Shown one piece after another: positions 1 to 27,921 of a stretch of 64,000 nt of DNA. The notes beneath the pieces were generated by a model. That model was given only the letters and a program-made list of their open reading frames with translations, had not been told where the DNA came from and made no database searches. Every line of letters begins with the position of its first letter. Position 1 is the stretch's first letter. The DNA is from Escherichia phage vB_vPM_PD114. The stretch lies in sequence record MH675927.1; one strand, given 5' to 3'. Position numbers and translations under genes: made by a program.

Positions 1-1234
1 CCGCAAAGAACATATAAATACGTCCTGTCTCTGCTCTTTGTGTAATAATTTCTGCCAGAAGATCTCGTGCTTTTACAAACTTCTTCTTAATACGTTTGCG
101 ACTAACTTTTTCATATACTTCTTCAAACTCTTCCTCGCTTTTATAAAGCGCCTCATAGAGTTCTGGTGCTTCGTCATAACTAACTAGCATCCAATCTTTA
201 CCTTTTGCTGCACGGCGCAGGAAAGCATTGTTTACTACGATAGAGTAATCAAGTTTATCTACTCGTTTTTCACTAACAGTAGTTGGGTTTTTCAAACGTA
301 CCAAATCTTCAAAATCAGGTTCTAATATTGTAAACGTTACTGTTGCACTTCCACCACGACTTGCTTGTTTTGATGCTCCAACACTTGTCTCCATCCATTT
401 CAGATATGGTAAAAGACCACCGTGAACGATACGGTTGTTCTTAACACCTTGTCCTGTGGCACGGGTTTGAAGGTTAACACCAATACCTGCATTATTCAAT
501 GTATATTCATGCGCAAGATAGTTAGCAATTGCTAAAGATTCTGCTGTATCATCTGCTCTAAACAGACAACAAGAAGCACTACCTTTAATCTTAGTACGCA
601 AAGTTGTTAAATAAGGCGATGGTAAATTAATCTTAAGATCACTTACGTAGGTATATAGACGTTTAATGTCTTCTACTCTGCGATCTTTTGGTTGGATTTC
701 CATTACCTTCATTGCTACACCAATGAATAAAAACTGTGGTGATTCAAAAACAACATCATTGATCGCATCTTTCACAAGATACTTATCAACCATCTGGCGC
801 AGTACGGAATAACCATAAGTTAGGTTTTTATCGTGATTGACAATTTTACCAATCTCAATAATTTCTTCTTCTGTATAATCCATTTTTCCCCAATAGCCTT
901 TACTTACAGACATATTGTAGAAATCCAGGAGGGAGGGGATATTATGATATCCCCCATGAGCCTGTTTATAAATCATACCAAGAAGTAACCGACCTGCCAT
1001 ATCACTATATGCCTGATCTTTCTTATCAATACATGCTGCTATCATAGCTTTATGTAAATCACGAGTAGGCACACCGTCGTAACAACGTTTAACAGCTTCA
1101 AGTTCAATTTCAGACCAATTTAATTTACCAGCAGCAAACTCTGACCATTTACGAAGTTTTTCTGGATTAAATTCTTCTTTCTTGCCGTTTGTTTTTGTTA
1201 CATAACGGATAGATTTGCTTAGATACTGAGTCAC
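1..1234 (-). CDS. nrdA: Ribonucleotide reductase class Ia alpha subunit (NrdA-like), N-terminal ~410 aa; C-terminal part lies beyond the left window edge
   Basis: Own minus-strand translation: VTQYLSKSIRYVTKTNGKKEEFNPEKLRKW... (ATP-cone-like) then ...YTEEEIIEIGKIVNHDKNLTYGYSVLRQMVDKYLVKD...FESPQFLFIGVAM..., colinear with E. coli NrdA N-terminus. GTG start at 1234 preceded by AGGAG. Frame stays open to position 1. Confidence 0.6.
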   Translation of the reverse strand, partial: MTQYLSKSIRYVTKTNGKKEEFNPEKLRKWSEFAAGKLNWSEIELEAVKRCYDGVPTRDLHKAMIAACIDKKDQAYSDMAGRLLLGMIYKQAHGGYHNIPSLLDFYNMSVSKGYWGKMDYTEEEIIEIGKIVNHDKNLTYGYSVLRQMVDKYLVKDAINDVVFESPQFLFIGVAMKVMEIQPKDRRVEDIKRLYTYVSDLKINLPSPYLTTLRTKIKGSASCCLFRADDTAESLAIANYLAHEYTLNNAGIGVNLQTRATGQGVKNNRIVHGGLLPYLKWMETSVGASKQASRGGSATVTFTILEPDFEDLVRLKNPTTVSEKRVDKLDYSIVVNNAFLRRAAKGKDWMLVSYDEAPELYEALYKSEEEFEEVYEKVSRKRIKKKFVKARDLLAEIITQRAETGRIYMFFA

Positions 1235-1245
1235 TTCCTCTCCTA

Positions 1246-1506
1246 TTAATTGTGCATGTTTAGAACATCTACATCATAACCGCCACGCATCTCATTATAT
1301 AAGCCATTTGCGTATAGAAAACCTTCAAAATGATCTATACCTTCAAAACCTTTTGCCTTTGCTTTGCGGTCTGCTTCTTGTCTTTTTGGGGATAATCTTT
1401 TAGATGTATCAAGGATAACTGTTACATTGCAACCTAATGTTTCATCAAAATAGACTTCAATTTCACAGCCTTCATATTTATTACTTTCTGTCATTTGGCC
1501 TCTCAA
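1246..1506 (-). CDS. hypothetical protein (86 aa)
   Basis: ORF track; tightly packed in minus-strand operon; no recognisable motif. Confidence 0.35.
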   Translation of the reverse strand: MRGQMTESNKYEGCEIEVYFDETLGCNVTVILDTSKRLSPKRQEADRKAKAKGFEGIDHFEGFLYANGLYNEMRGGYDVDVLNMHN

Positions 1507-1917
1507 TTAGAATTCAGAATCATCATCTCGTGATGGATCATGTTCATTTCCGAAGTCTTCCATTTTGATATGAGAGCTACCCCAACCTGTAAAATCTTCT
1601 TCTCCAAAGTGCAAAATATCTACACCTTGATAGATTCGCTTATATTTATAGTCTTGTCGAACTGGGAAAGTATACAATGTAGTATTTGCAAACACCACAC
1701 GTCGATTGTTGTTACTACGAATATTAACACCACGTTCTACTGTATAATGTCCATCGGTAGACATACCAAGCATTACTAATGCTGCTCGCAATGTAGTGTT
1801 ATGATACTCGTGAGGAATTTTTCCTCCGTGTTTTTTAGCCATTTCTTTCCAGATCGGTGTAGCCTTAATGGTAGACATACTTACGGTCGCCCAAATGGTT
1901 GTATTAATTAGTGACAT
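1507..1917 (-). CDS. hypothetical protein (136 aa), acidic C-terminus
   Basis: ORF track; abuts downstream ORF; hairpin GGAGAGC-ata-GCTCTCC lies just upstream at ~1931-1950. Confidence 0.35.
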   Translation of the reverse strand: MSLINTTIWATVSMSTIKATPIWKEMAKKHGGKIPHEYHNTTLRAALVMLGMSTDGHYTVERGVNIRSNNNRRVVFANTTLYTFPVRQDYKYKRIYQGVDILHFGEEDFTGWGSSHIKMEDFGNEHDPSRDDDSEF

Positions 1918-20059: not shown

Positions 20060-20145
20060 GCAAGTGTGGTGGAATTGGTGATACACATTGTGCTTAAAAC
20101 GCAACGCTTAAATGATTGAGGGTTCGAATCCCTCCACTTGCACCA
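20060..20145 (+). tRNA. tRNA-Leu(TAA), class II
   Basis: Acceptor GCAAGTG/CACTTGC, anticodon loop CTTAAAA, long variable arm, T-arm GAGGG-TTCGAAT-CCCTC, discriminator A, CCA encoded. Confidence 0.6.
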
Positions 20146-20147
20146 AC

Positions 20148-20253
20148 GCCTAGTAGGGTATTTGGTAATTCCGAGGCCATCAAAGCCTGAAAAATATGTT
20201 AGACCGCTTTGTCTAACTAAATACGAAATATGGTTCGATTCCATAACTAGGCT
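20148..20253 (+). tRNA. tRNA-like element, unusually long (106 nt); possible pseudo-tRNA or tRNA with insertion
   Basis: Perfect acceptor pairing GCCTAGT/ACTAGGC and T-arm TATGG-TTCGATT-CCATA, but 74 nt between them with internal 7-bp hairpin GTTAGAC/GTCTAAC. Confidence 0.25.
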
Positions 20254-20285
20254 TCAATTTAAATAATAATTTTAGTAAAAATATC

Positions 20286-20314
20286 TTGACATTCACTTAG
20301 TTTTTTGTTATAGT
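20286..20314 (+). promoter_or_regulatory. sigma70-like promoter TTGACA-N17-TATAGT
   Basis: Read directly; ~12 nt upstream of next tRNA. Confidence 0.5.
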
Positions 20315-20325
20315 TACTGTGAAAA

Positions 20326-20407
20326 CGGGGTGTATCTCACCTGACTTCTAATCAGGCGTTAACCGAGTAATTGGAGTATGCAGGTTCGAATCCTGTCACC
20401 CCGACCA
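20326..20407 (+). tRNA. tRNA-like with Arg(TCT)-type anticodon arm, atypical D region
   Basis: Acceptor CGGGGTG/CACCCCG, T-arm GCAGG-TTCGAAT-CCTGT, CCA encoded; hairpin CCTGA-CTTCTAA-TCAGG only 7 nt after acceptor, no D-arm found by hand. Confidence 0.4.
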
Positions 20408-20425
20408 AAAAGTTTTAAAAACTAC

Positions 20426-20455
20426 TTGACAAGCAAGATAGTTTTATGTTAGATT
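20426..20455 (+). promoter_or_regulatory. sigma70-like promoter TTGACA-N18-TAGATT
   Basis: Read directly. Confidence 0.4.
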
Positions 20456-20470
20456 TAAAGTATGATAACG

Positions 20471-20560
20471 GGAAGGTAGGGCGCAGCGGTGCGCAACCAG
20501 GTTTGAACCCTGGCCCATTGTAGCGATACGGTGATGGTTCGACTCCATTATCTTCCTCCA
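20471..20560 (+). tRNA. tRNA-Ser(TGA), class II
   Basis: Acceptor GGAAGGT/ATCTTCC (one G-U), anticodon arm CCAGG-TTTGAAC-CCTGG, long variable arm, T-arm GATGG-TTCGACT-CCATT, CCA encoded. Confidence 0.55.
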
Positions 20561-20578
20561 AATTCAACTAGGAGCTTT

Positions 20579-20731
20579 ATGAATTATAAAACTATTGGAC
20601 AGGTTGTTACCGGAGTTAAGATTGTAGATAATAAAGTTGTTTATGAGTATTCTAATCTTCAACAATCTGAAGATGGTAAAAATATTCGTATGGTAAAAGC
20701 AGAACAAAAAGATTCCGGTTGTTTTGAATAA
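20579..20731 (+). CDS. hypothetical small protein (50 aa; track ORF 20531-20731 trimmed to avoid tRNA overlap)
   Basis: TAGGAGC...ATG at 20579 right after tRNA-Ser. Confidence 0.3.
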   Translation: MNYKTIGQVVTGVKIVDNKVVYEYSNLQQSEDGKNIRMVKAEQKDSGCFE

Positions 20732-20739
20732 TTAAGAAC

Positions 20740-20825
20740 GGTAGATTGGTGAAATGGTAGCCACAACAGTTTGCTAAACTGTCGTCGGAAACGGCGTGTA
20801 GGTTCAAGTCCTACATCTACCGCCA
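20740..20825 (+). tRNA. tRNA-Ser(GCT), class II
   Basis: Acceptor GGTAGAT/ATCTACC, anticodon arm ACAGT-TTGCTAA-ACTGT, long variable arm, T-arm GTAGG-TTCAAGT-CCTAC, discriminator G, CCA encoded. Confidence 0.6.
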
Positions 20826-20845
20826 AATTTATGCGAGGAGGATGT

Positions 20846-21226
20846 ATGCCAAGCAATGATTATATGCGGGAATACATGAAAACTCGGTGGCAGAAGCGAA
20901 GAGCTTCCGCAATCCTCCAGCTTGGAGGTAAATGTGTTAATTGTGGGTCTGTAGATGACTTGGAATTTGATCATAAAGATTCAAGCGAGAAGAAGTTTTA
21001 TATTAGTCGAATGAGTTCATGCTCTGAGGCTAAATGGCAGGAAGAACTTGCCAAATGTCAACTTTTGTGCCATGACTGTCACATGAAGAAGACAAGAATA
21101 TCCCAAGACATGGGAAACAGAATTAGAACAACGGTGTGTGTTTGCGGGGCAGTATTTTATAGTACAAAGGCTTATGCTGGACATACACGGTGGTGTAAAG
21201 AGTATGCATCGTTAGCCAAGCGGTAA
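20846..21226 (+). CDS. HNH endonuclease (free-standing, inside tRNA cluster)
   Basis: CVNCGSVDDLEFDHKD...CQLLCHDCHMKK...C-terminal Cys/His cluster; RBS GAGGAGG; last ~7 codons overlap the 5' end of the following tRNA. Confidence 0.55.
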   Translation: MPSNDYMREYMKTRWQKRRASAILQLGGKCVNCGSVDDLEFDHKDSSEKKFYISRMSSCSEAKWQEELAKCQLLCHDCHMKKTRISQDMGNRIRTTVCVCGAVFYSTKAYAGHTRWCKEYASLAKR

Positions 21227-21280
21227 GGCACTTGACTTTTAATCAAGGGAGCGAAGGTTCGAATCCTTCACGATGTACCA
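21206..21280 (+). tRNA. tRNA-Lys(TTT)
   Basis: Acceptor GCATCGT/ACGATGT (G1-U72), D-stem GCC/GGC, anticodon arm CTTGA-CTTTTAA-TCAAG, T-arm GAAGG-TTCGAAT-CCTTC, CCA encoded. Confidence 0.55.
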
Positions 21281-21285
21281 AACAC

Positions 21286-21372
21286 GTAGGTATCGCATAG
21301 CGGCAATTGCTGGAGACTGTAAATCTCCTGCCCTTCGGGGCTTCGTTGGTTCGAGTCCAACTACCTGCACCA
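21286..21372 (+). tRNA. tRNA-Tyr(GTA), class II
   Basis: Acceptor GTAGGTA/TACCTGC, anticodon arm GGAGA-CTGTAAA-TCTCC, long variable arm, T-arm GTTGG-TTCGAGT-CCAAC, discriminator A, CCA. Confidence 0.55.
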
Positions 21373-21379
21373 AATTAAA

Positions 21380-21464
21380 GATGGATTGGCCTAGTGGTTG
21401 GGCGACGGACTGTTAATCCGTGAACGAAAGTTCTAGCAAGGTTCAAATCCTTGATCCATCGCCA
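21380..21464 (+). tRNA. class II (Ser-like architecture) tRNA with GTT anticodon
   Basis: Acceptor GATGGAT/ATCCATC, 3-bp D-stem GCC/GGC, anticodon arm ACGGA-CTGTTAA-TCCGT, 15-nt variable hairpin GAAC-GAAA-GTTC, T-arm CAAGG-TTCAAAT-CCTTG, discriminator G, CCA. Confidence 0.45.
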
Positions 21465-21471
21465 GAATTAT

Positions 21472-21548
21472 GGACTTGTAGAGTTAAGGTAAACCCTCAG
21501 TCGCAAAGAGGCTTCTGGAATTGCAGGTATCGAATCCTGCCGAGTCCA
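21472..21548 (+). tRNA. tRNA, anticodon unresolved
   Basis: Acceptor GGACTTG/CGAGTCC, T-arm GCAGG-(T)ATCGAAT-CCTGC with 8-nt loop; anticodon arm could not be folded unambiguously (possible loop GTCGCAA). Confidence 0.35.
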
Positions 21549-21554
21549 ATTATT

Positions 21555-21629
21555 GCTCCTATCGTATAACGGCTATTACGGTTGCCTTGTAAGCAACTTA
21601 TCAGGGTTCGAGTCCTTGTGGGAGCACCA
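21555..21629 (+). tRNA. tRNA-Thr(TGT)
   Basis: Acceptor GCTCCTA/TGGGAGC, anticodon arm GTTGC-CTTGTAA-GCAAC, T-arm CAGGG-TTCGAGT-CCTTG, CCA encoded. Confidence 0.55.
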
Positions 21630-21652
21630 ATTTTAACTCTAAAGGAGTGTAT

Positions 21653-21976
21653 GTGACAGAAAAAGAGTTAGAGAAATATTTTAATATCAATGTTTTCGAT
21701 GGTTTTGATGATATTGAAGATGTTGAAAGATATTATGAAGTAGAGTTAGATAAGGATAACATTGTAATTCTTTCTGCCACTTATGATTGTGCATATTATG
21801 AAGGTGAATCTCACGTTTATTTTTATGATATGAAAACATCTTTGTTTTATGAAGTACACGCATATCATTGTTCTTGTTATGGTTTAGAAGGTCAGTGGGA
21901 ACCTGAAGAAATAGGTGATTTGAGCTTTACGGTTGCATATCTAAACAGACGTGGTGCATCTACTATTTTAAAATAA
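21653..21976 (+). CDS. hypothetical acidic protein (107 aa) inside tRNA cluster
   Basis: AGGAG then GTG at 21653 (track start 21647 overlaps the RBS); ORF track. Confidence 0.4.
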   Translation: MTEKELEKYFNINVFDGFDDIEDVERYYEVELDKDNIVILSATYDCAYYEGESHVYFYDMKTSLFYEVHAYHCSCYGLEGQWEPEEIGDLSFTVAYLNRRGASTILK

Positions 21977-21990
21977 ATATTAAAAGCCTC

Positions 21991-22020
21991 TTGACAAAGG
22001 GGCTAATAATATGTTAGAGT
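21991..22020 (+). promoter_or_regulatory. sigma70-like promoter TTGACA-N18-TAGAGT
   Basis: Read directly; precedes tRNA-Gly. Confidence 0.45.
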
Positions 22021-22031
22021 AATATTGTTAA

Positions 22032-22106
22032 GCGGGTATAGTGTTAATGGTAGCATATGAGGTTTCCACCCTCCAGGTGCAGGTTCAAGTCCTGTTACTC
22101 GCTCCA
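22032..22106 (+). tRNA. tRNA-Gly(TCC)
   Basis: Acceptor GCGGGTA/TACTCGC, anticodon loop TTTCCAC, T-arm GCAGG-TTCAAGT-CCTGT, CCA encoded. Confidence 0.5.
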
Positions 22107-22537
22107 AGATTATTTAAATGGAATCGCTAGAGAAAATTTCTCTTTTCGCTCATGGTTTTCTCCTTCAAACTCTAGCGGTTCTTTTTAAGTGATTTTTTAG
22201 TTTATTGGAGATTCACTGCCTTAGTGTGAGCTAAAATCGAGGAGCCATCGAACTGTCTGATTAATGATTTGCGAATCATTATAGTTTTAAGACCCCGGCA
22301 GTTTTATGGTGTACCTCTTGAATGTGAATGATGACGGGTTTATGGTTATCCTGGTCGTTAAATATCCAAAAACCTATGTTCCCCTTGAGGGCTTGCGCAG
22401 GCAATGCCAATAAGTCCTGCATTTTCATTTAAAAGAGAATTTATAATGGAAAAAGATGAACTTAAGTATGCTAAGCCTCTGGCTTCTGCTGCACGAAAAG
22501 CAGTTCGTCACTTTGTGGTAACACTGAAGTAATTTAT

Positions 22538-22612
22538 TGGAGATTAGCCTAGTGGGAAGGCAACGGCCTTTGAAGTCGTGATGACTAGGTTCGATTCCTA
22601 GATCTCCAGCCA
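22538..22612 (+). tRNA. tRNA-Gln(TTG)
   Basis: Acceptor TGGAGAT/ATCTCCA, D-stem GCC/GGC, anticodon arm ACGGC-CTTTGAA-GTCGT, T-arm CTAGG-TTCGATT-CCTAG, CCA. Confidence 0.5.
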
Positions 22613-22619
22613 AGATTTA

Positions 22620-22695
22620 CAGTGCGTAGCGCAGTTGGTAGCGTGGGAGCCTTGGACGCTTCAGGTCGCAGGTTCGAGTCCTGCCGCACTGACCA
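22620..22695 (+). tRNA. tRNA-Pro(TGG)
   Basis: Acceptor CAGTGCG/CGCACTG (C1-G72), anticodon arm GGAGC-CTTGGAC-GCTTC, T-arm GCAGG-TTCGAGT-CCTGC, CCA. Confidence 0.55.
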
Positions 22696-22700
22696 AATTT

Positions 22701-22775
22701 GCAGAGATAGCTGAGACGGATTAGTGCTACCCTGAAAAGGTAGAAAGGATGGATCGTTACCATCTCTCTGCACCA
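22701..22775 (+). tRNA. tRNA-Phe(GAA)
   Basis: Acceptor GCAGAGA/TCTCTGC, anticodon arm CTACC-CTGAAAA-GGTAG, T-arm GATGG-ATCGTTA-CCATC (atypical loop), CCA. Confidence 0.5.
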
Positions 22776-22852
22776 AATAACACCATCCAAGGAGTAGACT
22801 TGGTTAACTGTCAATAGCACATTGAGGCTTCTTACAGTGGTGTACTTATTAT

Positions 22853-22937
22853 GGCTAAGTGGTGGAATGGTATACACGATACGCTTAGAACGTATTGCCC
22901 CAAGGGATTGTGAGTTCGAGTCTCACCTTAGCTACCA
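22853..22937 (+). tRNA. tRNA-Leu(TAG), class II
   Basis: Acceptor GGCTAAG/CTTAGCT, anticodon arm ATACG-CTTAGAA-CGTAT, long variable arm, T-arm GTGAG-TTCGAGT-CTCAC, discriminator A, CCA. Confidence 0.55.
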
Positions 22938-22952
22938 AATTATTACAGATTG

Positions 22953-23031
22953 CGCGGGATAGAGGAGTCTGGTCGTCCTCGCCAGTTTCATATGCTGGAG
23001 ATCATCGGTTCAAATCCGATTCCCGCCTCCA
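22953..23031 (+). tRNA. tRNA with CAT anticodon (Met, or Ile2 if lysidine-modified), C1:C72 mismatch
   Basis: Acceptor CGCGGGA/TCCCGCC with unpaired 1:72, D-stem GAGG/CCTC, anticodon arm CCAGT-TTCATAT-GCTGG, T-arm ATCGG-TTCAAAT-CCGAT, CCA. Confidence 0.45.
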
Positions 23032-23089
23032 CTAAATACCTCCCTTCTGGTGTAATGATTAAATTACATTGACACCTCAAGGAACTCAT

Positions 23090-23172
23090 AGCTGGGTAGA
23101 TTTAAAAGAGTATGGTACTCAATATGGCTCCAAACCATAGATCAAGGGGTTCGATTCCTCACCTTGCTGCCA
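23090..23172 (+). tRNA. tRNA-Trp(CCA)-like, boundaries uncertain
   Basis: Anticodon arm TATGG-CTCCAAA-CCATA, T-loop TTCGATT, 3' CCTTGCT-G-CCA; acceptor pairing has a mismatch, D region long. Confidence 0.3.
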
Positions 23173-23177
23173 ATTAT

Positions 23178-23253
23178 TGTGGTATCGTACAGATGGTTAG
23201 TACACTCGACCGATAATCGAGAAACAACGGTTCGACTCCGTTTACCACGACCA
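23178..23253 (+). tRNA. tRNA-Ile(GAT)
   Basis: Acceptor TGTGGTA/TACCACG, D-stem GTAC/GTAC, anticodon arm CTCGA-CCGATAA-TCGAG, T-arm AACGG-TTCGACT-CCGTT, CCA. Confidence 0.45.
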
Positions 23254-24095: not shown

Positions 24096-24527
24096 ATGAT
24101 GATACTGATTATGTTAATAAACCTACTGAAGAATAAATGGGTTAGGTATTTTGTTCTTATTATAGCATTGTTTGGTGGTTTGTATATTGGTTTAAACAAA
24201 TTACACGATGATGTGTATGCACAAGGCTACAACGCAGGTGTTGCTAAACAAGAACAAATATTACAACAAAACCAAATTAAAGCAAAACAGCAATTCGATA
24301 TTTTACAAGCAAAAGCAGATTCAGAAAGATCTAAATTGAATGAAAAAATTCATTCATTAACGAAAGAAAAAAATGATCTTCTTATACAATTGGATAAGAA
24401 GAGTAATAACATAACACAAGAGAGAATAGATTATGCGAAAACATCTTCTGGCGCTATGTCTTGTTTTAGCCCTAATGATGACGGGTTGCGCATCATCAAC
24501 AACAGCTTCCCAGCCTCTACTGATTGA
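24096..24527 (+). CDS. i-spanin-like protein (N-terminal TM helix + coiled coil)
   Basis: TM segment VRYFVLIIALFGGLYIGL followed by Q/K-rich coiled coil; 3' end overlapped by a lipoprotein ORF in another frame. Confidence 0.4.
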   Translation: MMILIMLINLLKNKWVRYFVLIIALFGGLYIGLNKLHDDVYAQGYNAGVAKQEQILQQNQIKAKQQFDILQAKADSERSKLNEKIHSLTKEKNDLLIQLDKKSNNITQERIDYAKTSSGAMSCFSPNDDGLRIINNSFPASTD

Positions 24528-24762
24528 GCAGTGTAAAGCTGTAGCAACACAACAAATAAAAGCCCCTGATTCTGTTAGTATGGAGAAACCATCTACCCCT
24601 GTTTTATATACTCCTAATCAAATAAAGAAAGGAGTTACAAGATCAGAGGTAGTTGATAATCAAACTTTAAACAACGCTTTGTGGGAAAAAGATAGGATAA
24701 AACTTATCAGTTTGCAAAACTATATTAAAACATTACAAAGCGAAGGAATAATTTCTAATTAG
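24433..24762 (+). CDS. o-spanin-like outer-membrane lipoprotein, overlapping the i-spanin-like gene
   Basis: MRKHLLALCLVLALMMTGC lipoprotein signal/lipobox-like; starts within the 3' part of the previous ORF in a different frame. Confidence 0.4.
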   Translation: MRKHLLALCLVLALMMTGCASSTTASQPLLIEQCKAVATQQIKAPDSVSMEKPSTPVLYTPNQIKKGVTRSEVVDNQTLNNALWEKDRIKLISLQNYIKTLQSEGIISN

Positions 24763-24770
24763 GAGGAGAT

Positions 24771-26009
24771 GTGGCAAGGAAACCTGTCAAACAATCTTTT
24801 GAAAATGTAGATATTGAAGTTAAAGCCCAACCTGGCAAACAAACACTAGCTATGGATCTTATGCCTGAAGTAATGATTTATGGTGGTGCGGCAGGTTGTG
24901 TTTCAGCAGAAACAGAATACTTAACAAGAGACGGTTGGAAACAAATAAGTGAATATGATGGTGAGGATATTTATCAATACAATCCAAGAAACAAACGTCT
25001 TGAATTAGTTACACCATCTTTTGTAGAATATGATGCTAAAGATAATCTGTATTGTATTACAAACGGAGTAGGTGTCTTCCAAGAATTAAGTATGGAACAT
25101 CGCTTTGTTTTCTACAAGAAGAAAAAATCCAAAAAACATTTTGAAATTCTTGTTGGGGATCTTATTGCACTACAGCAAGCAGGACACCCATTACGAGGAT
25201 ATATTGAAAATCCTTTTGGTAAACGTGTTCCGTTTAACATTCAAGGTAAACCTAGCACATATCTAAAAATTCATGAGGTAATGACAAGTGATGATAAGAA
25301 ATATTGCTTTGAAACTCCAAGCAGTTATGTCGTGTTTAGACGTGGCGATCACATCTTCGTTACTGGGAATAGCGGCAAAAGCCGTCTGCTACTTCTAAAA
25401 GCACTTAAATACGCATATAAAGATCCACTGTTTGGTGGTATTCTTTTCCGTAAAAATACAACAGCTTTACGTAAATCTGGTGGTTTGTTTACTGAAGCTA
25501 AAAAACTTTATCTACCATTAAAGCCTCACGTAAGAGAACAGGCTATGGAGATGGAGTTCAGAGCCACAAAAGGTGGCACACTTAAATTTGACCATCTTGA
25601 AAATGATAACGTAACTGCTGAAACTAACCATCAAGGTACACAGTATTCGATGGTAGGGTTTGACGAACTTACACATTTTACACAATATGAAATGCTGTAT
25701 CTGTTAGGGCGTATGCGTTCTGAATCAGAAACATCTTTTATGCTGTGTACTTGTAACCCTGATGCTGACAGTTGGGTGTTGAAATGGGTACTTCCTTATT
25801 TGGATGAAGCTGGTTATCCACGGGAAGATATGTGTGGCAAACAGCTATACTTTCTTATTGTGCAAGATGAACCAGTATTTGCTGAAACAGCAGAAGAGTT
25901 GAAAGAAAAGTATCCTGAAAACTGTTTTATGCAAAACCCAAACACAGGTGAAACAGTGGTTATTGAACCACAAACATTTGTGTTCATTGGTGGAACCATT
26001 AATCAATAG
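24771..26009 (+). CDS. terminase large subunit, ATPase domain (contains mini-intein in Walker A)
   Basis: GTG start after AGGAGG; YGGAAG|C...intein...N|SGKS reconstitutes P-loop GGAAGSGKS; Walker B SMVGFDELTHF; followed by portal gene downstream. Confidence 0.7.
   Translation: MARKPVKQSFENVDIEVKAQPGKQTLAMDLMPEVMIYGGAAGCVSAETEYLTRDGWKQISEYDGEDIYQYNPRNKRLELVTPSFVEYDAKDNLYCITNGVGVFQELSMEHRFVFYKKKKSKKHFEILVGDLIALQQAGHPLRGYIENPFGKRVPFNIQGKPSTYLKIHEVMTSDDKKYCFETPSSYVVFRRGDHIFVTGNSGKSRLLLLKALKYAYKDPLFGGILFRKNTTALRKSGGLFTEAKKLYLPLKPHVREQAMEMEFRATKGGTLKFDHLENDNVTAETNHQGTQYSMVGFDELTHFTQYEMLYLLGRMRSESETSFMLCTCNPDADSWVLKWVLPYLDEAGYPREDMCGKQLYFLIVQDEPVFAETAEELKEKYPENCFMQNPNTGETVVIEPQTFVFIGGTINQ
24897..25370 (+). 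mobile_element. mini-intein (158 aa) inserted in the terminase Walker A motif
   Basis: Starts CVSAETEYLTRDGW (block A-like, Cys1), ends ...DHIFVTGN followed by Ser (+1); flanking extein residues join to a canonical P-loop. Confidence 0.6.
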
Positions 26010-26063
26010 TGGCTTTGTGCAGCGATGCACATCGAATAACTTTGTTAATTGCTGGGAAGTCTA

Positions 26064-26092
26064 TTGACAAATAGATAATCAGCAGCTATAAT
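26064..26092 (+). promoter_or_regulatory. consensus sigma70 promoter TTGACA-N17-TATAAT driving the HNH endonuclease gene
   Basis: Exact -35 and -10 consensus hexamers, 17-nt spacer. Confidence 0.55.
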
Positions 26093-26124
26093 CACTTCTC
26101 CAAAAATATTAGTAGGAGAGTAAA

Positions 26125-26805
26125 ATGAAAAACTTAGATTTCATCGGATACCCGCATTATTGCGCCACATACGATGGTCGTATTTTTAGTTTATACACCC
26201 AAAAATTCCTAAGCGAAAATAAGATGCTTGGAGATTACAAGGGAGTAACCATTTGTGAAAATGGTAACAGGATAGAAGAATTACAGCACAGGTTGATAGC
26301 AAAAGCATTTGTGCCTAACCCTGAAAATAAGCCTTTTGTTAATCACAAAGATGGCAACAAACTTAATAATTGTGCAGACAATCTTGAGTGGACAACAGAA
26401 CAAGAGAATACTCTTCACGCTATGTCCACAGGGTTAAGACGAACAGAAGTCATAAATGACTACAGACCTATTCCAGACACTGTTGCTGTGGAAATTTGCA
26501 AACTGTTAGAGCAAGGATCACGTAACAAAGATATCTGTCAGATGTATAATGTGGCACAATCTGTTGTTAGTGATATAAAAGCTGGCAGAACATATAAAGA
26601 CATTTCACAAGACTTTAACTTTAGAAAAATACCCTCTTCCAACAGAATAAGTGAAGATAAAGTCTTAGGGATTTGTGAAAAGCTGCAAGAAAATATTCTA
26701 TCAATAAATAAAATAGCTAAAAAATACGGCGTAAGTTTTAATGTAGTTAAGAGTATTAAAGATAGGAAAACCTATACGTACTTATCTAATAACTACAATT
26801 GGTGA
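26125..26805 (+). CDS. HNH homing endonuclease (HNH_3-type with C-terminal DNA-binding region) inserted within the terminase gene
   Basis: VNHKDGNKLNNCADNLEWTTEQEN core motif; RBS GGAGAG; located between the two terminase reading frames. Confidence 0.65.
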   Translation: MKNLDFIGYPHYCATYDGRIFSLYTQKFLSENKMLGDYKGVTICENGNRIEELQHRLIAKAFVPNPENKPFVNHKDGNKLNNCADNLEWTTEQENTLHAMSTGLRRTEVINDYRPIPDTVAVEICKLLEQGSRNKDICQMYNVAQSVVSDIKAGRTYKDISQDFNFRKIPSSNRISEDKVLGICEKLQENILSINKIAKKYGVSFNVVKSIKDRKTYTYLSNNYNW

Positions 26806-27017
26806 TGTAGTTCAACGACTATCCCGAAAGGGAGTAGGGCAGAAGCAAATGCTGCTCGAAAAGCAAAGCATCTCTTAGGAGATGATGATATAGTCTATTC
26901 TGCACAGTGATGTGCAGCAGTTCATAAGAGAACGTGGAGTAGAGTTGCGACTACTCCAGAATAAAAAGATTTGATAACCCTGAACTAATAAGACTTAACC
27001 CTAAATACTTAGCTTCT

Positions 27018-27824
27018 TTGAAGGCTCAAACCGCCGTTAAGAGAGCACAGCTTTTAGATGGTTGTTGGTTTGCTCGTGCGCAAGAAGAGAGTTTCTTTAA
27101 CAGAGAATGGTTACACGTTATCAAGTTTAAAGATTTACCAAACAATCTTAAATATATGCGAGCGTGGGATAAAGCAGTATCTGTTCCAACAGAATCTTAT
27201 CGTTATCCTGACTACACAACATCTGTTAAAATGGCTAAAGACTCTGATGGAAATTATTACATTTTTGGTGATTATGATTATGATGCTCACGATGAAGGTA
27301 GTAAAATTTTTGGTAGATTCAGAAGACTACCAGGTGATCGAGATAATTTAATTCTAAACCAATGTAAGATTGATGGAGATGAAGTTACAGTTGTATTGCC
27401 AAAAGATCCTTCTGGTGCTGGTTTGATTGAATATACAGAATCAGCTAAAAAACTAATTGCTGAAGGGTTTGTTGTTAAACCAGACGCTATGCCTGGTAAC
27501 AAGAAAAAGTTACAACGCTTTATGCCATTTAGTAGTGCTTGTCAAAATGGTTTTGTTTATATTGTAGAAGAATCTTTCCCTAATAAAGAAACTCTTGATC
27601 ATTTCTATAAAGAGATGGAGTCGTTTAATGGAGAAAGATCTACAGCAACATTAAAAGATGATATTCCAGATGCTGCTGCATCTTGCTTTAATACTTTGTC
27701 AAAAGAACAGATGTTTAAAGCAGTAGCAATACCTTCTGCAACAAATGCATTAACAGGGTATGGTAAGATGGGTGGAAGATCAAGAAACTCTTTATCTTCT
27801 CCATATAGTATCAGAGGAAGATAA
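27018..27824 (+). CDS. terminase large subunit, C-terminal (nuclease-domain) part; true 5' end uncertain
   Basis: In the same frame as the N-terminal terminase ORF; frame open from 26943; track start is TTG; position between ATPase part and portal. Confidence 0.45.
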   Translation: MKAQTAVKRAQLLDGCWFARAQEESFFNREWLHVIKFKDLPNNLKYMRAWDKAVSVPTESYRYPDYTTSVKMAKDSDGNYYIFGDYDYDAHDEGSKIFGRFRRLPGDRDNLILNQCKIDGDEVTVVLPKDPSGAGLIEYTESAKKLIAEGFVVKPDAMPGNKKKLQRFMPFSSACQNGFVYIVEESFPNKETLDHFYKEMESFNGERSTATLKDDIPDAAASCFNTLSKEQMFKAVAIPSATNALTGYGKMGGRSRNSLSSPYSIRGR

Positions 27825-27857: not shown

Positions 27858-27921
27858 AGCATTATATGTCTACCCCTTCAATGGGGTAGAGTCATTTGTC
27901 CAGCATTAGCGGAGGTTCTGA

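Follow-up and report, generated by a model that had tools for sequence, protein, structure and literature searches.

Whether a terminase gene has been split in two by a free-standing endonuclease, or is still a single gene interrupted by an intron that encodes one, is the question raised by the large-terminase gene (terL) of Escherichia phage vB_vPM_PD114 (MH675927.1), from which a stretch of 64,000 nt was analysed (the window). The terL ORF upstream of the endonuclease gene (24771-26009) ends in a TAG stop and the downstream terL ORF is listed from TTG 27018, indeed in the same frame, as a sequence-only reading had pointed out (27018 - 24771 = 2247 nt, i.e. 749 codons). That reading had left the choice between intron and free-standing endonuclease undecided. 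The choice is settled here in favour of an intron with an intron-encoded homing endonuclease, supported by an RF00028 core, covariation, precise insertion and the restored TerL: with a probability of roughly 0.9, window positions 26000-26968 are a mobile IA-type group I intron in terL of a phi92-like coliphage (Justusliebigvirus).

The limits of the element were set by alignment with the intron-less allele of PHB05, with agreement to the base. Comparison with related phages, which had been proposed as a check, gave 49 near-identical phi92-like records in which terL is uninterrupted and from which exactly these 969 nt are missing. The earlier estimate of an element of about 1 kb therefore holds, but not its limits (26010-27017). 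Excision of the 969 nt yields a TerL of 694 aa that is 100% identical to the uninterrupted TerL of PHB05. Since exon 2 starts at 26969 and the downstream frame is open already from 26943, the 16 conserved codons (FDNPELIRLNPKYLAS) ahead of TTG 27018 belong to terL. The insertion falls at codon 410, within the Pfam Terminase_6N (ATPase) match (residues 201-458 of the uninterrupted protein), and not between an ATPase ORF and a nuclease-domain ORF as had been supposed.

A covariance-model search, the other check that was run, places a group I core on both flanks of the endonuclease ORF (Table 1), RF00028 matching 26729-26917 (45.8 bits, E 3.9e-10) as well as the P4-P6 region (26050-26128). The score is depressed by the 723-nt P6 loop, which interrupts the alignment, and as it lies below the gathering score of 50, membership of RF00028 leans on covariation and on a homologue without the ORF, from the same site of terL in phage RudolfGeigy (rV5-like), which reaches 95.6 bits against the same gathering score. 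In fact, an Rfam scan of the whole window at the gathering threshold returned 14 tRNAs only and missed the intron, i.e. a routine Rfam scan would not flag it.

Table 1. Features of the terL locus in the window (^ marks a splice or insertion point)
Feature	Positions	Strand	Details	Basis
terL exon 1	24771-25999	+	ends with AT of Ile codon 410; U25999, its final base, is the 5' splice-site U	ORF list, PHB05 alignment, spliced translation
Mini-intein	24897-25370	+	TerL residues 43-200, 158 aa, Walker A loop, GAAG^C...TGN^SGKS; inside exon 1	
Group I intron	26000-26968	+	969 nt, phase 2; 3' end is omega-G 26968	missing exactly from intron-less alleles; RF00028; covariation
Ribozyme 5' half	25994-26090	+		homology to RF00028-aligned ORF-less intron; pair counts on homologue alignment
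P1	25994-26001/26007-26014	+	U25999.G26009 at splice site	
P10 guide	26002-26006	+		
P2	26016-26021/26026-26031	+	GCGA loop	
P3 5' strand	26040-26046	+		
P4	26050-26055/26079-26084	+		
P5	26059-26065/26070-26076	+		
Sigma-70 consensus TTGACA-N17-TATAAT	26064-26092	+	-35 in P5 stem-loop, -10 overlaps P6 5' strand; predicted start ~26099	
P6 5' strand	26085-26090	+		
Shine-Dalgarno (SD) hairpin	26096-26120	+	UUCUCC (26096-26101) pairs with endonuclease Shine-Dalgarno GGAGAG (26115-26120)	
HNH homing endonuclease	26125-26805	+	226 aa, loop of P6; HNH_3, then helix-turn-helix repeats	Pfam, 1U3E, phrog_59, rV5 homologue
Ribozyme 3' half	26806-26968	+		RF00028 alignment, covariation
P6 3' strand	26806-26811	+		
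P7	26817-26821/26891-26895	+		
P7.1	26822-26833	+	GAAA loop	
P7.2	26837-26857	+	two compensatory pairs	
P3 3' strand	26862-26868	+		
P8	26869-26874/26879-26884	+		
P9	26900-26917	+		
P9.1	26920-26933	+		
P9.2	26935-26958	+	inverted repeat of the sequence-only reading	
terL exon 2	26969-27824	+	begins with A completing Ile410, then FDNPELIRLNPKYLAS; 26971-26975 pair with internal guide sequence (P10)	PHB05 alignment, pair counts on homologues, spliced translation
Intron-less (PHB05-type) insertion site			...GGTGGTACTATCTTTGATAACCC...	

Over seven homologues, the P1-P10 model comprises 77 pairs in 14 helices, with 96.5% of cells paired (a percentage that is inflated by deriving the model from the same sequences on which it is scored) and 21 pairs changed on both sides, a count to which no more than about four truly different sequence types contribute. 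None of 500 shuffles reached either value, and models slid along the alignment gave 32-48% paired and 0-5 double-changed pairs. The core helices P3-P9, including the P3/P7 pseudoknot, are present and backed by covariation; J6/7-P7 (UCAACGACUA) and J8/7-P7' (GAUAUAGUC) agree with the RF00028 consensus, and both the splice-site U25999.G26009 and omega-G 26968 are invariant among the seven homologues. P10 is 80% paired in the homologue alignment and has one compensatory pair, between the guide sequence and position 3 of the Phe codon that is the first complete one in exon 2; the beginning of exon 3 in rV5 encodes this residue too. The inverted repeat that had been noticed earlier (TGGAGTAG/CTACTCCA, at 26935-26942 and 26951-26958) is indeed there and corresponds to P9.2. 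In the Michel-Westhof classification P7.1 and P7.2 mark subgroup IA introns, and both are found here between P7 and the P3 3' strand, which makes the intron IA-like at a level that does not separate IA1 from IA2.

From this structure we infer that the terL transcript undergoes RNA splicing. After transcription the RNA would fold into the P1-P10 core, guanosine would attack after U25999 (held by the U.G wobble of P1), and the freed exon would then attack after omega-G26968. Joining of ...GGAACCAU to AUUUGAUAAC... would put the Ile-Phe-Asp-Asn-Pro motif of TerL back in place, with a predicted spliced RNA junction of ...GGAACCAT^ATTTGATAAC..., which can likewise be written as ...GGTGGAACCAT^ATTTGATAACCC....

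The gene in the P6 loop was correctly recognised as being of the HNH_3 type and correctly placed at 26125-26805 (Pfam HNH_3, 37.6 bits against a cut-off of 24.8, E 1.7e-9). Its 226-aa product matches phrog_59 (E 1.1e-49), and its closest solved relative is I-HmuI (PDB 1U3E, E 7.9e-11, residues 5-156), encoded by the DNA-polymerase intron of Bacillus phage SPO1, which likewise combines a phage group I intron with an HNH endonuclease, although in another host gene and another host bacterium. The HNH residues align with those of I-HmuI and lie in an I-HmuI-like N-terminal region that is followed by a helix-turn-helix domain, the window protein being 52 aa longer, with additional helix-turn-helix repeats. 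By family, the protein would act as a homing endonuclease specific for the terL site: during mixed infection it would nick or cut an intron-less terL near the insertion site, upon which repair off the intron-bearing genome would copy in the intron and, with it, part of the upstream exon. I-HmuI itself nicks DNA, and nicking of this type would fit the one-sided co-conversion seen for the window intron.

The distribution of the intron is sporadic even among close relatives: it occurs in 6 of about 55 phi92-like records and in 1 of about 60 Phapecoctavirus phages. The latter, nepoznato, carries the same intron with 99.5% identity in exons that are only 86% identical. Compared with the intron-less phAPEC8_ev052, nepoznato differs at 10 of 800 positions, all of them between -51 and -3 from the insertion site, and at each of these it has the window allele. 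Donor-allele sequence in nepoznato thus extends over 51 nt on the 5' side, with none on the 3' side, the exchanged segment ending at most 13 nt 3' and between 51 and ~64 nt 5' of the insertion site. Window and PHB05 differ near the junction at -6, -3 and 0 only, the next differences being at -933 and +474, and the intron-type junction that precise loss would leave behind was found in none of the 49 intron-less records. Judged from these sequences, the intron is a genuine selfish element that has moved recently.

The perfect TTGACA-N17-TATAAT sequence that had been reported upstream of the endonuclease gene is present as well, at 26064-26092. It is the single match in the 64-kb window, where 0.13 would be expected by chance, and at least one perfect match arises in 11 of 100 shuffles of the window. 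TATAAT is kept in every ORF-bearing homologue despite 25-35% divergence elsewhere and is missing from the ORF-less ones, i.e. the -10 hexamer travels with the ORF cassette, whereas the -35-like element in P5 is found in ORF-less introns too. The endonuclease would probably have its own expression route, through a sigma-70 promoter built into P5/P6. Downstream of it, the SD hairpin is what minimum-free-energy folding gives for the window and for two diverged homologues, but its stability is not significant in the three (-5.1 to -5.8 kcal/mol; z-scores -1.35, -0.10 and +0.39). Its conservation weakly suggests that it masks the ribosome-binding site. The terL pre-mRNA, keeping the full hairpin, would then limit translation of the endonuclease, while a short transcript, beginning inside the hairpin, would leave the Shine-Dalgarno uncovered and allow translation; in this sense both promoter and hairpin may be in use. 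An operator of the I-TevI style, resembling the homing site, was rejected: the best local score between the 60-nt intron-less homing site and the promoter region was 9, which 587 of 2000 shuffles reached.

Against this background it is very improbable that a free-standing HNH cassette has split terL, with a terminase made of two separately translated polypeptides and a flanking RNA structure of no relevance. Public annotations do give two or three separate CDSs at the locus (UAB_1, nepoznato), and the stop of the first ORF at 26009 and the in-frame TTG at 27018 would allow two products. Yet a full group I core with covariation lies on both sides of the ORF, excision at U25999/G26968 recreates the uninterrupted protein exactly, and the ORF-less versions of the insertion in related phages cannot be endonuclease cassettes. 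The two-polypeptide terminase was rejected because exon 2 lacks a start codon where it begins (26969) and a start at TTG 27018 drops 16 residues, including an FDNP motif common to rV5 TerL; an obvious Shine-Dalgarno is also lacking ahead of 27018.

If the intron does splice, it could still be immobile, with the endonuclease and its promoter mere relics, TTGACA and TATAAT a by-product of the ribozyme, and the endonuclease unmade or made by read-through only. Decay of the endonuclease after fixation is what the homing-cycle model predicts (PMC1654191), and ORF-less derivatives do occur in Vequintavirus; the weak SD hairpin, the -35-like P5 element of ORF-less introns and the 11% of shuffles with a perfect promoter point the same way. 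That the window intron has reached this stage is nevertheless unlikely, with an intact ORF of 226 aa whose HNH residues align to I-HmuI, with an intron that is far from fixation in both genera, and with a TATAAT retained in all ORF-bearing lineages; the transfer across genera, the fresh co-conversion tract and the 99.5% intron identity argue for recent homing driven by the endonuclease. The transfer itself might instead reflect ordinary homologous recombination between co-infecting phages, given that these phages share hosts, that their terL genes are 86% identical and that gene conversion is widespread in the genomes of large coliphages according to the BASEL paper. For the 51-nt tract and intron held in common with nepoznato this is quite improbable, as the exchanged segment consists of the intron plus a short, one-sided flank with the narrow limits given above, and has at its centre the insertion site of an element that encodes an endonuclease, a pattern characteristic of gene conversion initiated by a break or a nick.

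The mobile group I intron of the window is a further example of an already published kind, its rV5 terL homologue being known since 2013, when the terL introns of rV5 (Vequintavirus) were described (Kropinski et al., PMC3606486). The second terL intron of rV5 has the same TerL insertion site (...ACC AT^A TT(T/C) GAT AA...), a homologous ribozyme with the same helices and ~76% core DNA identity, a homologous HNH endonuclease (63% aa identity) in the same P6 loop, and also a TATAAT and a hairpin over the Shine-Dalgarno. The identity of the host gene is lower (44.5% aa; 61% DNA for the exon), which speaks for mobility of the intron, and the -35 differs as well, being a perfect TTGACA in a re-paired P5 in the window and TTGCTA in rV5. 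Furthermore, rV5 terL lacks an intein and has a further intron, at Walker B, whereas the window terL has a single intron and a Walker A intein. ORF-less versions of the same insertion are found in Vequintavirus (rV5-like) phages.

More distant relatives share the ribozyme core only. The DNA polymerase genes of Vi06 (T7-like) and CB7 (Pectobacterium) and nrdB of Sureiya (Serratia) contain 3' ribozyme halves that are 73-80% identical to window 26808-26962, but in other host genes and at other insertion sites, and with other cargoes (a short HNH protein, a winged-helix protein and an endonuclease VII-like protein). The CB7 and Vi06 elements score 32-47 bits with RF00028 (the ORF-carrying introns of CB7 only 35-47 bits), and no match is listed at the Sureiya locus. 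The CB7 introns are reported to splice by RT-PCR (PMC7344957); the verified terL intron of CB7, the one terL intron found for which splicing has been seen by experiment, was rejected as direct support and serves as an analogy only, since it lies at about codon 128 (the region of rV5 intron 1), i.e. at another site. In Lactobacillus phage LL-H, an unrelated phage of an unrelated host, the large-terminase gene is interrupted by a group I intron as well (Mikkonen and Alatossava 1995, as cited in PMC3606486). The promoter-plus-hairpin design, finally, is documented for the intron endonucleases of T4 (PMC2988022), which likewise have their ORF in a peripheral loop and a dedicated promoter within the intron. 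The T4 promoters are however phage middle or late ones, while the sequence in the window matches the host's sigma-70 consensus and lies in a late gene (packaging); the window hairpin is much weaker than those of T4, and, unlike for I-TevI, no homing-site-like operator was found in the promoter region.

Exon 1 contains a second interruption, at the protein level. Where rV5 TerL has a contiguous GGAAGSGKS, the window TerL has an in-frame insertion in the conserved Walker A motif (Table 1), with a Cys at position 1, an (S/T)xxH in block B, an Asn at its end with Ser as the next residue, and a predicted Hint fold. Pfam and NCBIfam gave no match for it, a PDB search with the single sequence gave noise only, a word-indexed protein search returned 5 close fragments only, and a single-sequence AlphaFold model was unusable (pLDDT 42). 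The exhaustive HMMER search that was needed found 734 relatives, which sit in P-loops of unrelated ATPases and among which C1, S65-x-x-H68, C137 and N158 are invariant. The family profile matches the AceL NrdHF intein (6ZGQ, E 1.4e-8), and the alignment-based AlphaFold model (pLDDT 94.6) has only inteins or Hint domains among its top 20 PDB folds. Minus the intein, TerL would be ~536 aa (~61 kDa), and by its sequence the mature terminase should need both RNA splicing and protein splicing.

A joint reading of these features can be put forward tentatively: P5/P6 would be doubly coded as -35 and -10, the P5 stem having been re-paired by compensatory changes that created TTGACA, so that unmodified host RNA polymerase would transcribe the endonuclease early, apart from the late terL transcript, with the terminase itself depending on two-step splicing. 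If true, a T4-style translational gate would be coupled to the host polymerase and not to late transcription of the phage, and, with the Walker A intein, an active terminase would need RNA splicing as well as protein splicing for one gene.

General knowledge of group I introns is unchanged by the window intron. In UAB_1, cardinal, nepoznato and others terL has been deposited as two or three genes or as hypothetical proteins, although it should be annotated as a single gene that contains a 969-nt intron and encodes a 158-aa intein. Typing and therapy collections make use of such phages, and the intron and its conversion tract will distort terminase-based phylogenies and PCR typing across the site. 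The intron is also a clean natural case of a homing intron in the middle of its spread, rare in its own genus and just moved to a sister genus, and together with its rV5-like relatives (including the ORF-less derivatives) it spans several stages of the homing cycle.

The element that interrupts terL at 26000-26968 is a group I intron, which is mobile and encodes an HNH homing endonuclease. The phage from which the window was taken is a coliphage of the phi92-like type (Justusliebigvirus, Stephanstirmvirinae), its terminase region being 99% identical to that of phages UAB_1 and cardinal. The sequence-only reading had described an interrupted terminase with an HNH ORF between two same-frame terL ORFs, and the ORF listing agrees (see table). 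Only 8 of the 66 matching phage records contain the insert, the others having one uninterrupted terL of 2085 nt (98.7-99.5% identity), and alignment with PHB05, which has an intron-less allele, leaves exactly 969 nt of extra DNA in the window. The junction reads GGT ACT ATC|TTT GAT in PHB05 and GGA ACC AT[T AAT ... AAAAAG]A TTT GAT in the window, and 26000-26968 follows as the insert because it is the sole placement with a U at the 5' exon end and a G at the insert end. An insert of ~1 kb had thus been recognised correctly, but not its limits (26010-27017); likewise the terminase is indeed split, but not between ATPase and nuclease domains, since the insertion site falls within the Pfam Terminase_6N (ATPase) match (residues 201-458). 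The intron falls between the second and third bases of Ile codon 410, and joining 24771-25999 to 26969-27824 yields a 694-aa protein with zero differences from PHB05 TerL.

Coordinates of features in the window and in related retrieved loci (L handles)
Feature	Position	Strand	Remark
Array of 14 tRNA genes	20060-23250	+	Rfam RF00005, 40-73 bits; directly upstream of lysis and terminase region
Two overlapping ORFs (143 aa, 109 aa)	24096-24762	+	Directly upstream of terL
Upstream terL ORF	24771-26009		
Mini-intein (158 aa)	24897-25370	+	TerL residues 43-200, within terL exon 1
Weaker RF00028 match	26050-26128		P4-P6 region
Promoter TTGACA-N17-TATAAT	26064-26092		
Pairing partner of Shine-Dalgarno	26096-26101		
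Shine-Dalgarno GGAGAG	26115-26120		
HNH ORF	26125-26805		
Best RF00028 match	26729-26917		E 3.9e-10
Inverted repeat	26935-26958		Helix P9.2
terL-like downstream ORF	TTG 27018 to 27824		Frame as upstream ORF
Terminator-like hairpin (8 pairs)	27869-27890	+	45 nt past terL stop codon
Second group I intron, rV5-like terL	L004/L005/L007 about 849-1127		RF00028 84-85 bits; directly past Walker B motif (...MVCFDEG|)
ORF-less derivatives (about 250 nt) of same terL intron	L004, L008, L009, L010 around 1495-1750		Several Vequintavirus and Avunavirus phages
3'-half relative, Certrevirus CB7	L016 2501-2632		
3'-half relative, Serratia phage Sureiya	L017 1501-1645		
3'-half relative, T7-like Vi06	L018 1501-1660		

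As for the surroundings of terL, the second of the overlapping ORFs has a lipoprotein-like N-terminus (...LALMMTGC), and the position of the two matches the i-spanin/o-spanin pair annotated beside terL in rV5-like phages. The bases that follow the hairpin past terL (GTCATTTGTC) include just five T; a rho-independent terminator is annotated at the corresponding position of rV5.

A covariance-model search for a group I core, proposed earlier, gave two matches to RF00028 (the Rfam group I intron family), the better of which scored 45.8 bits against a gathering score of 50. The score is lowered because 723 nt, including the ORF, are held in one loop; the ORF-less intron of RudolfGeigy reaches 95.6 bits across the entire model. 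BLAST with the insert retrieved homologues at the same terL position in rV5-like phages (Vequintavirinae, 67% identity), as well as ORF-less versions of about 250 nt. With the RF00028 alignment of the RudolfGeigy intron as guide and the ORF loop removed, seven distinct homologues were aligned and helices P1-P10 drawn, including the P3/P7 pseudoknot and P10. In this model, which was built from the very sequences scored (about four really distinct types among them), 96.5% of cells hold standard pairs, compared to 32-48% with partners slid, and 21 of 77 pairs show changes on both sides, compared to 0-5 in the slid controls; these pairing values were matched by none of 500 shuffles. Compensatory changes occur in P2, P3, P5, P7.2, P8, P9, P9.1, P9.2 and P10 (P9.2 being the inverted repeat already noticed in the sequence-only reading), the splice-site pair U25999.G26009 and omega-G 26968 do not vary among homologues, and GNRA loops cap P2, P7.1 and P9. 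By the established classification, the presence of P7.1 and P7.2 assigns the intron to subgroup IA.

The 226-aa endonuclease (HNH_3 plus helix-turn-helix repeats; phrog_59) lies wholly within the P6 loop, its stop codon adjoining the 3' strand of P6. Among solved structures, its best relative is I-HmuI (E 7.9e-11), the HNH endonuclease encoded by the DNA-polymerase intron of SPO1. The perfect promoter reported for the insert is present as well, being the sole match in 64 kb (0.13 expected; at least one in 11 of 100 shuffles); its -35 hexamer is part of the P5 stem-loop, while its -10 hexamer overlaps the 5' strand of P6. At the position of TTGACA rV5 has TTGCTA, P5 pairing being kept by compensatory changes. 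TATAAT occurs in all ORF-bearing homologues and in none of the ORF-less ones, so that the -10 element moves with the ORF cassette; ORF-less derivatives have a 21-nt hairpin in P6 instead, which points to loss or gain of the whole cassette at once, together with the -10 element of its promoter. The Shine-Dalgarno can pair with an upstream segment, giving a hairpin that is weak (-5.1 to -5.8 kcal/mol; z-scores non-significant) but that minimum-free-energy folding yields for the window, rV5 and phage 18-1-2 alike. The predicted transcription start of the promoter is near 26099, within the 5' strand of the hairpin, so that the structure left in such a transcript would amount to only -0.7 kcal/mol. 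We infer that the endonuclease may be expressed from the intron promoter, with the hairpin masking the Shine-Dalgarno on longer RNA; a search for an I-TevI-like operator found none.

Between the two options left by the sequence-only reading, the free-standing endonuclease, with terL divided between two polypeptides, is very unlikely, given the group I core, the exact protein restored by excision, an exon 2 without a start codon at its beginning and the existence of ORF-less homologues; the intron with its intron-encoded endonuclease stands. Its distribution is sporadic: it is found in 6 of about 55 phi92-like records (4 of them labelled Campylobacter phage), not in phi92 itself, and in one phage, nepoznato, among about 60 Phapecoctavirus records. 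The nepoznato intron is 99.5% identical to that of the window, compared to only 86% for the flanking exons. Over 800 nt, only 10 positions separate nepoznato from its intron-less relative phAPEC8_ev052; they all fall at -51 to -3 from the insertion site, a stretch in which nepoznato has the window allele, and from +13 onward it keeps its own. This makes for a one-sided co-conversion tract, which implies that the intron was transferred from a phi92-like donor. Plain recombination as the source of the tract would leave unexplained why it centres on the insertion site and extends to one side only, while a decayed, immobile element is at odds with an ORF that is still intact, with an intron so rare and with a fresh transfer between genera.

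Within the phi92 group, intron-bearing and intron-less alleles differ near the junction only at -6, -3 and 0 (the next differences being at -933 and +474); two of these bases are located in P1, which pairs better with them, and none of the intron-less records carries the intron-type junction. In the host exon, identity to rV5 amounts to 44.5% (aa) and 61% (DNA); the intron is better conserved, with about 76% in the ribozyme core and 63% (aa) between the endonuclease and the protein encoded by the rV5 intron. Separately, MG065639, MG065645, MG065656, MG065689 and others carry the name 'Campylobacter phage' and give C. jejuni as host, yet they share about 99% identity with phi92-like, rV5-like and phAPEC8-like coliphages, this intron included; the probable cause is wrong labelling, or coliphages contaminating Campylobacter phage preparations.

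The rV5 terL is reported to consist of three segments, with a homing endonuclease inside one of the introns (Kropinski et al. 2013, PMC3606486); its GenBank record gives terL as a join of three exons, and such introns are annotated in the BASEL collection. Introns of this general type in CB7 were shown by experiment to splice (PMC7344957), although the CB7 terL intron occupies a different site. Other enterobacterial phages have introns in DNA-polymerase and nrdB genes that share 73-80% identity with the 3' half of the ribozyme, and RF00028 also matches the CB7 and Vi06 elements. The ORF cargoes of the CB7, Sureiya and Vi06 introns differ, and this suggests that the ribozyme chassis is shared while the endonucleases have been swapped. 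A literature search found no paper on the intron in phi92-like phages, and deposited records of this type of locus annotate separate genes; the intron adds a member to an already described group. Unlike rV5-like phages, the window phage has no intron at the Walker B site; in HdK5 and phiWec193 an ORF annotated as recombination endonuclease lies upstream of that point.

Exon 1 also encodes a mini-intein, which interrupts the Walker A loop (GAAG|C...TGN|SGKS) that is contiguous in rV5 TerL (GGAAGSGKS). An exhaustive HMMER search gave 734 cluster representatives (E<=1e-3), occupying the equivalent P-loop point (G|C...GN|[S/T/C]GK[S/T]) in unrelated ATPases, among them RecD-like, ResIII/DEAD and SNF2 helicases (proteins P0008-P0155). 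Most are interrupted centrally by about 150 aa, the sort of insertion that an endonuclease domain would make. Across the family there is no variation in Cys1, block B S-x-x-H, the block F Cys or the terminal Asn; in the window intein, Cys1 and the block F Cys are accompanied by a penultimate Gly. Neither Pfam and NCBIfam on the window intein nor Pfam on ten relatives (for intein or Hint) returned a match; the family profile matches the AceL NrdHF intein 6ZGQ (E 1.4e-8), and the top PDB folds for the alignment-based model (pLDDT 94.6) are inteins and Hint domains, the class 3 AceL NrdHF intein being best. P-loop inteins in TerL are well known in mycobacteriophages (PMC5050341). Judging from terL length (2085 nt in Justusliebigvirus, 2076 nt in Phapecoctavirus) and the same Walker A junction in nepoznato (GGAAGCVSAETEY), both genera appear to be fixed for the intein.

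The intron represents a clear natural homing event and also matters for annotation, while mature TerL, of about 536 aa, would require both RNA splicing and protein splicing.
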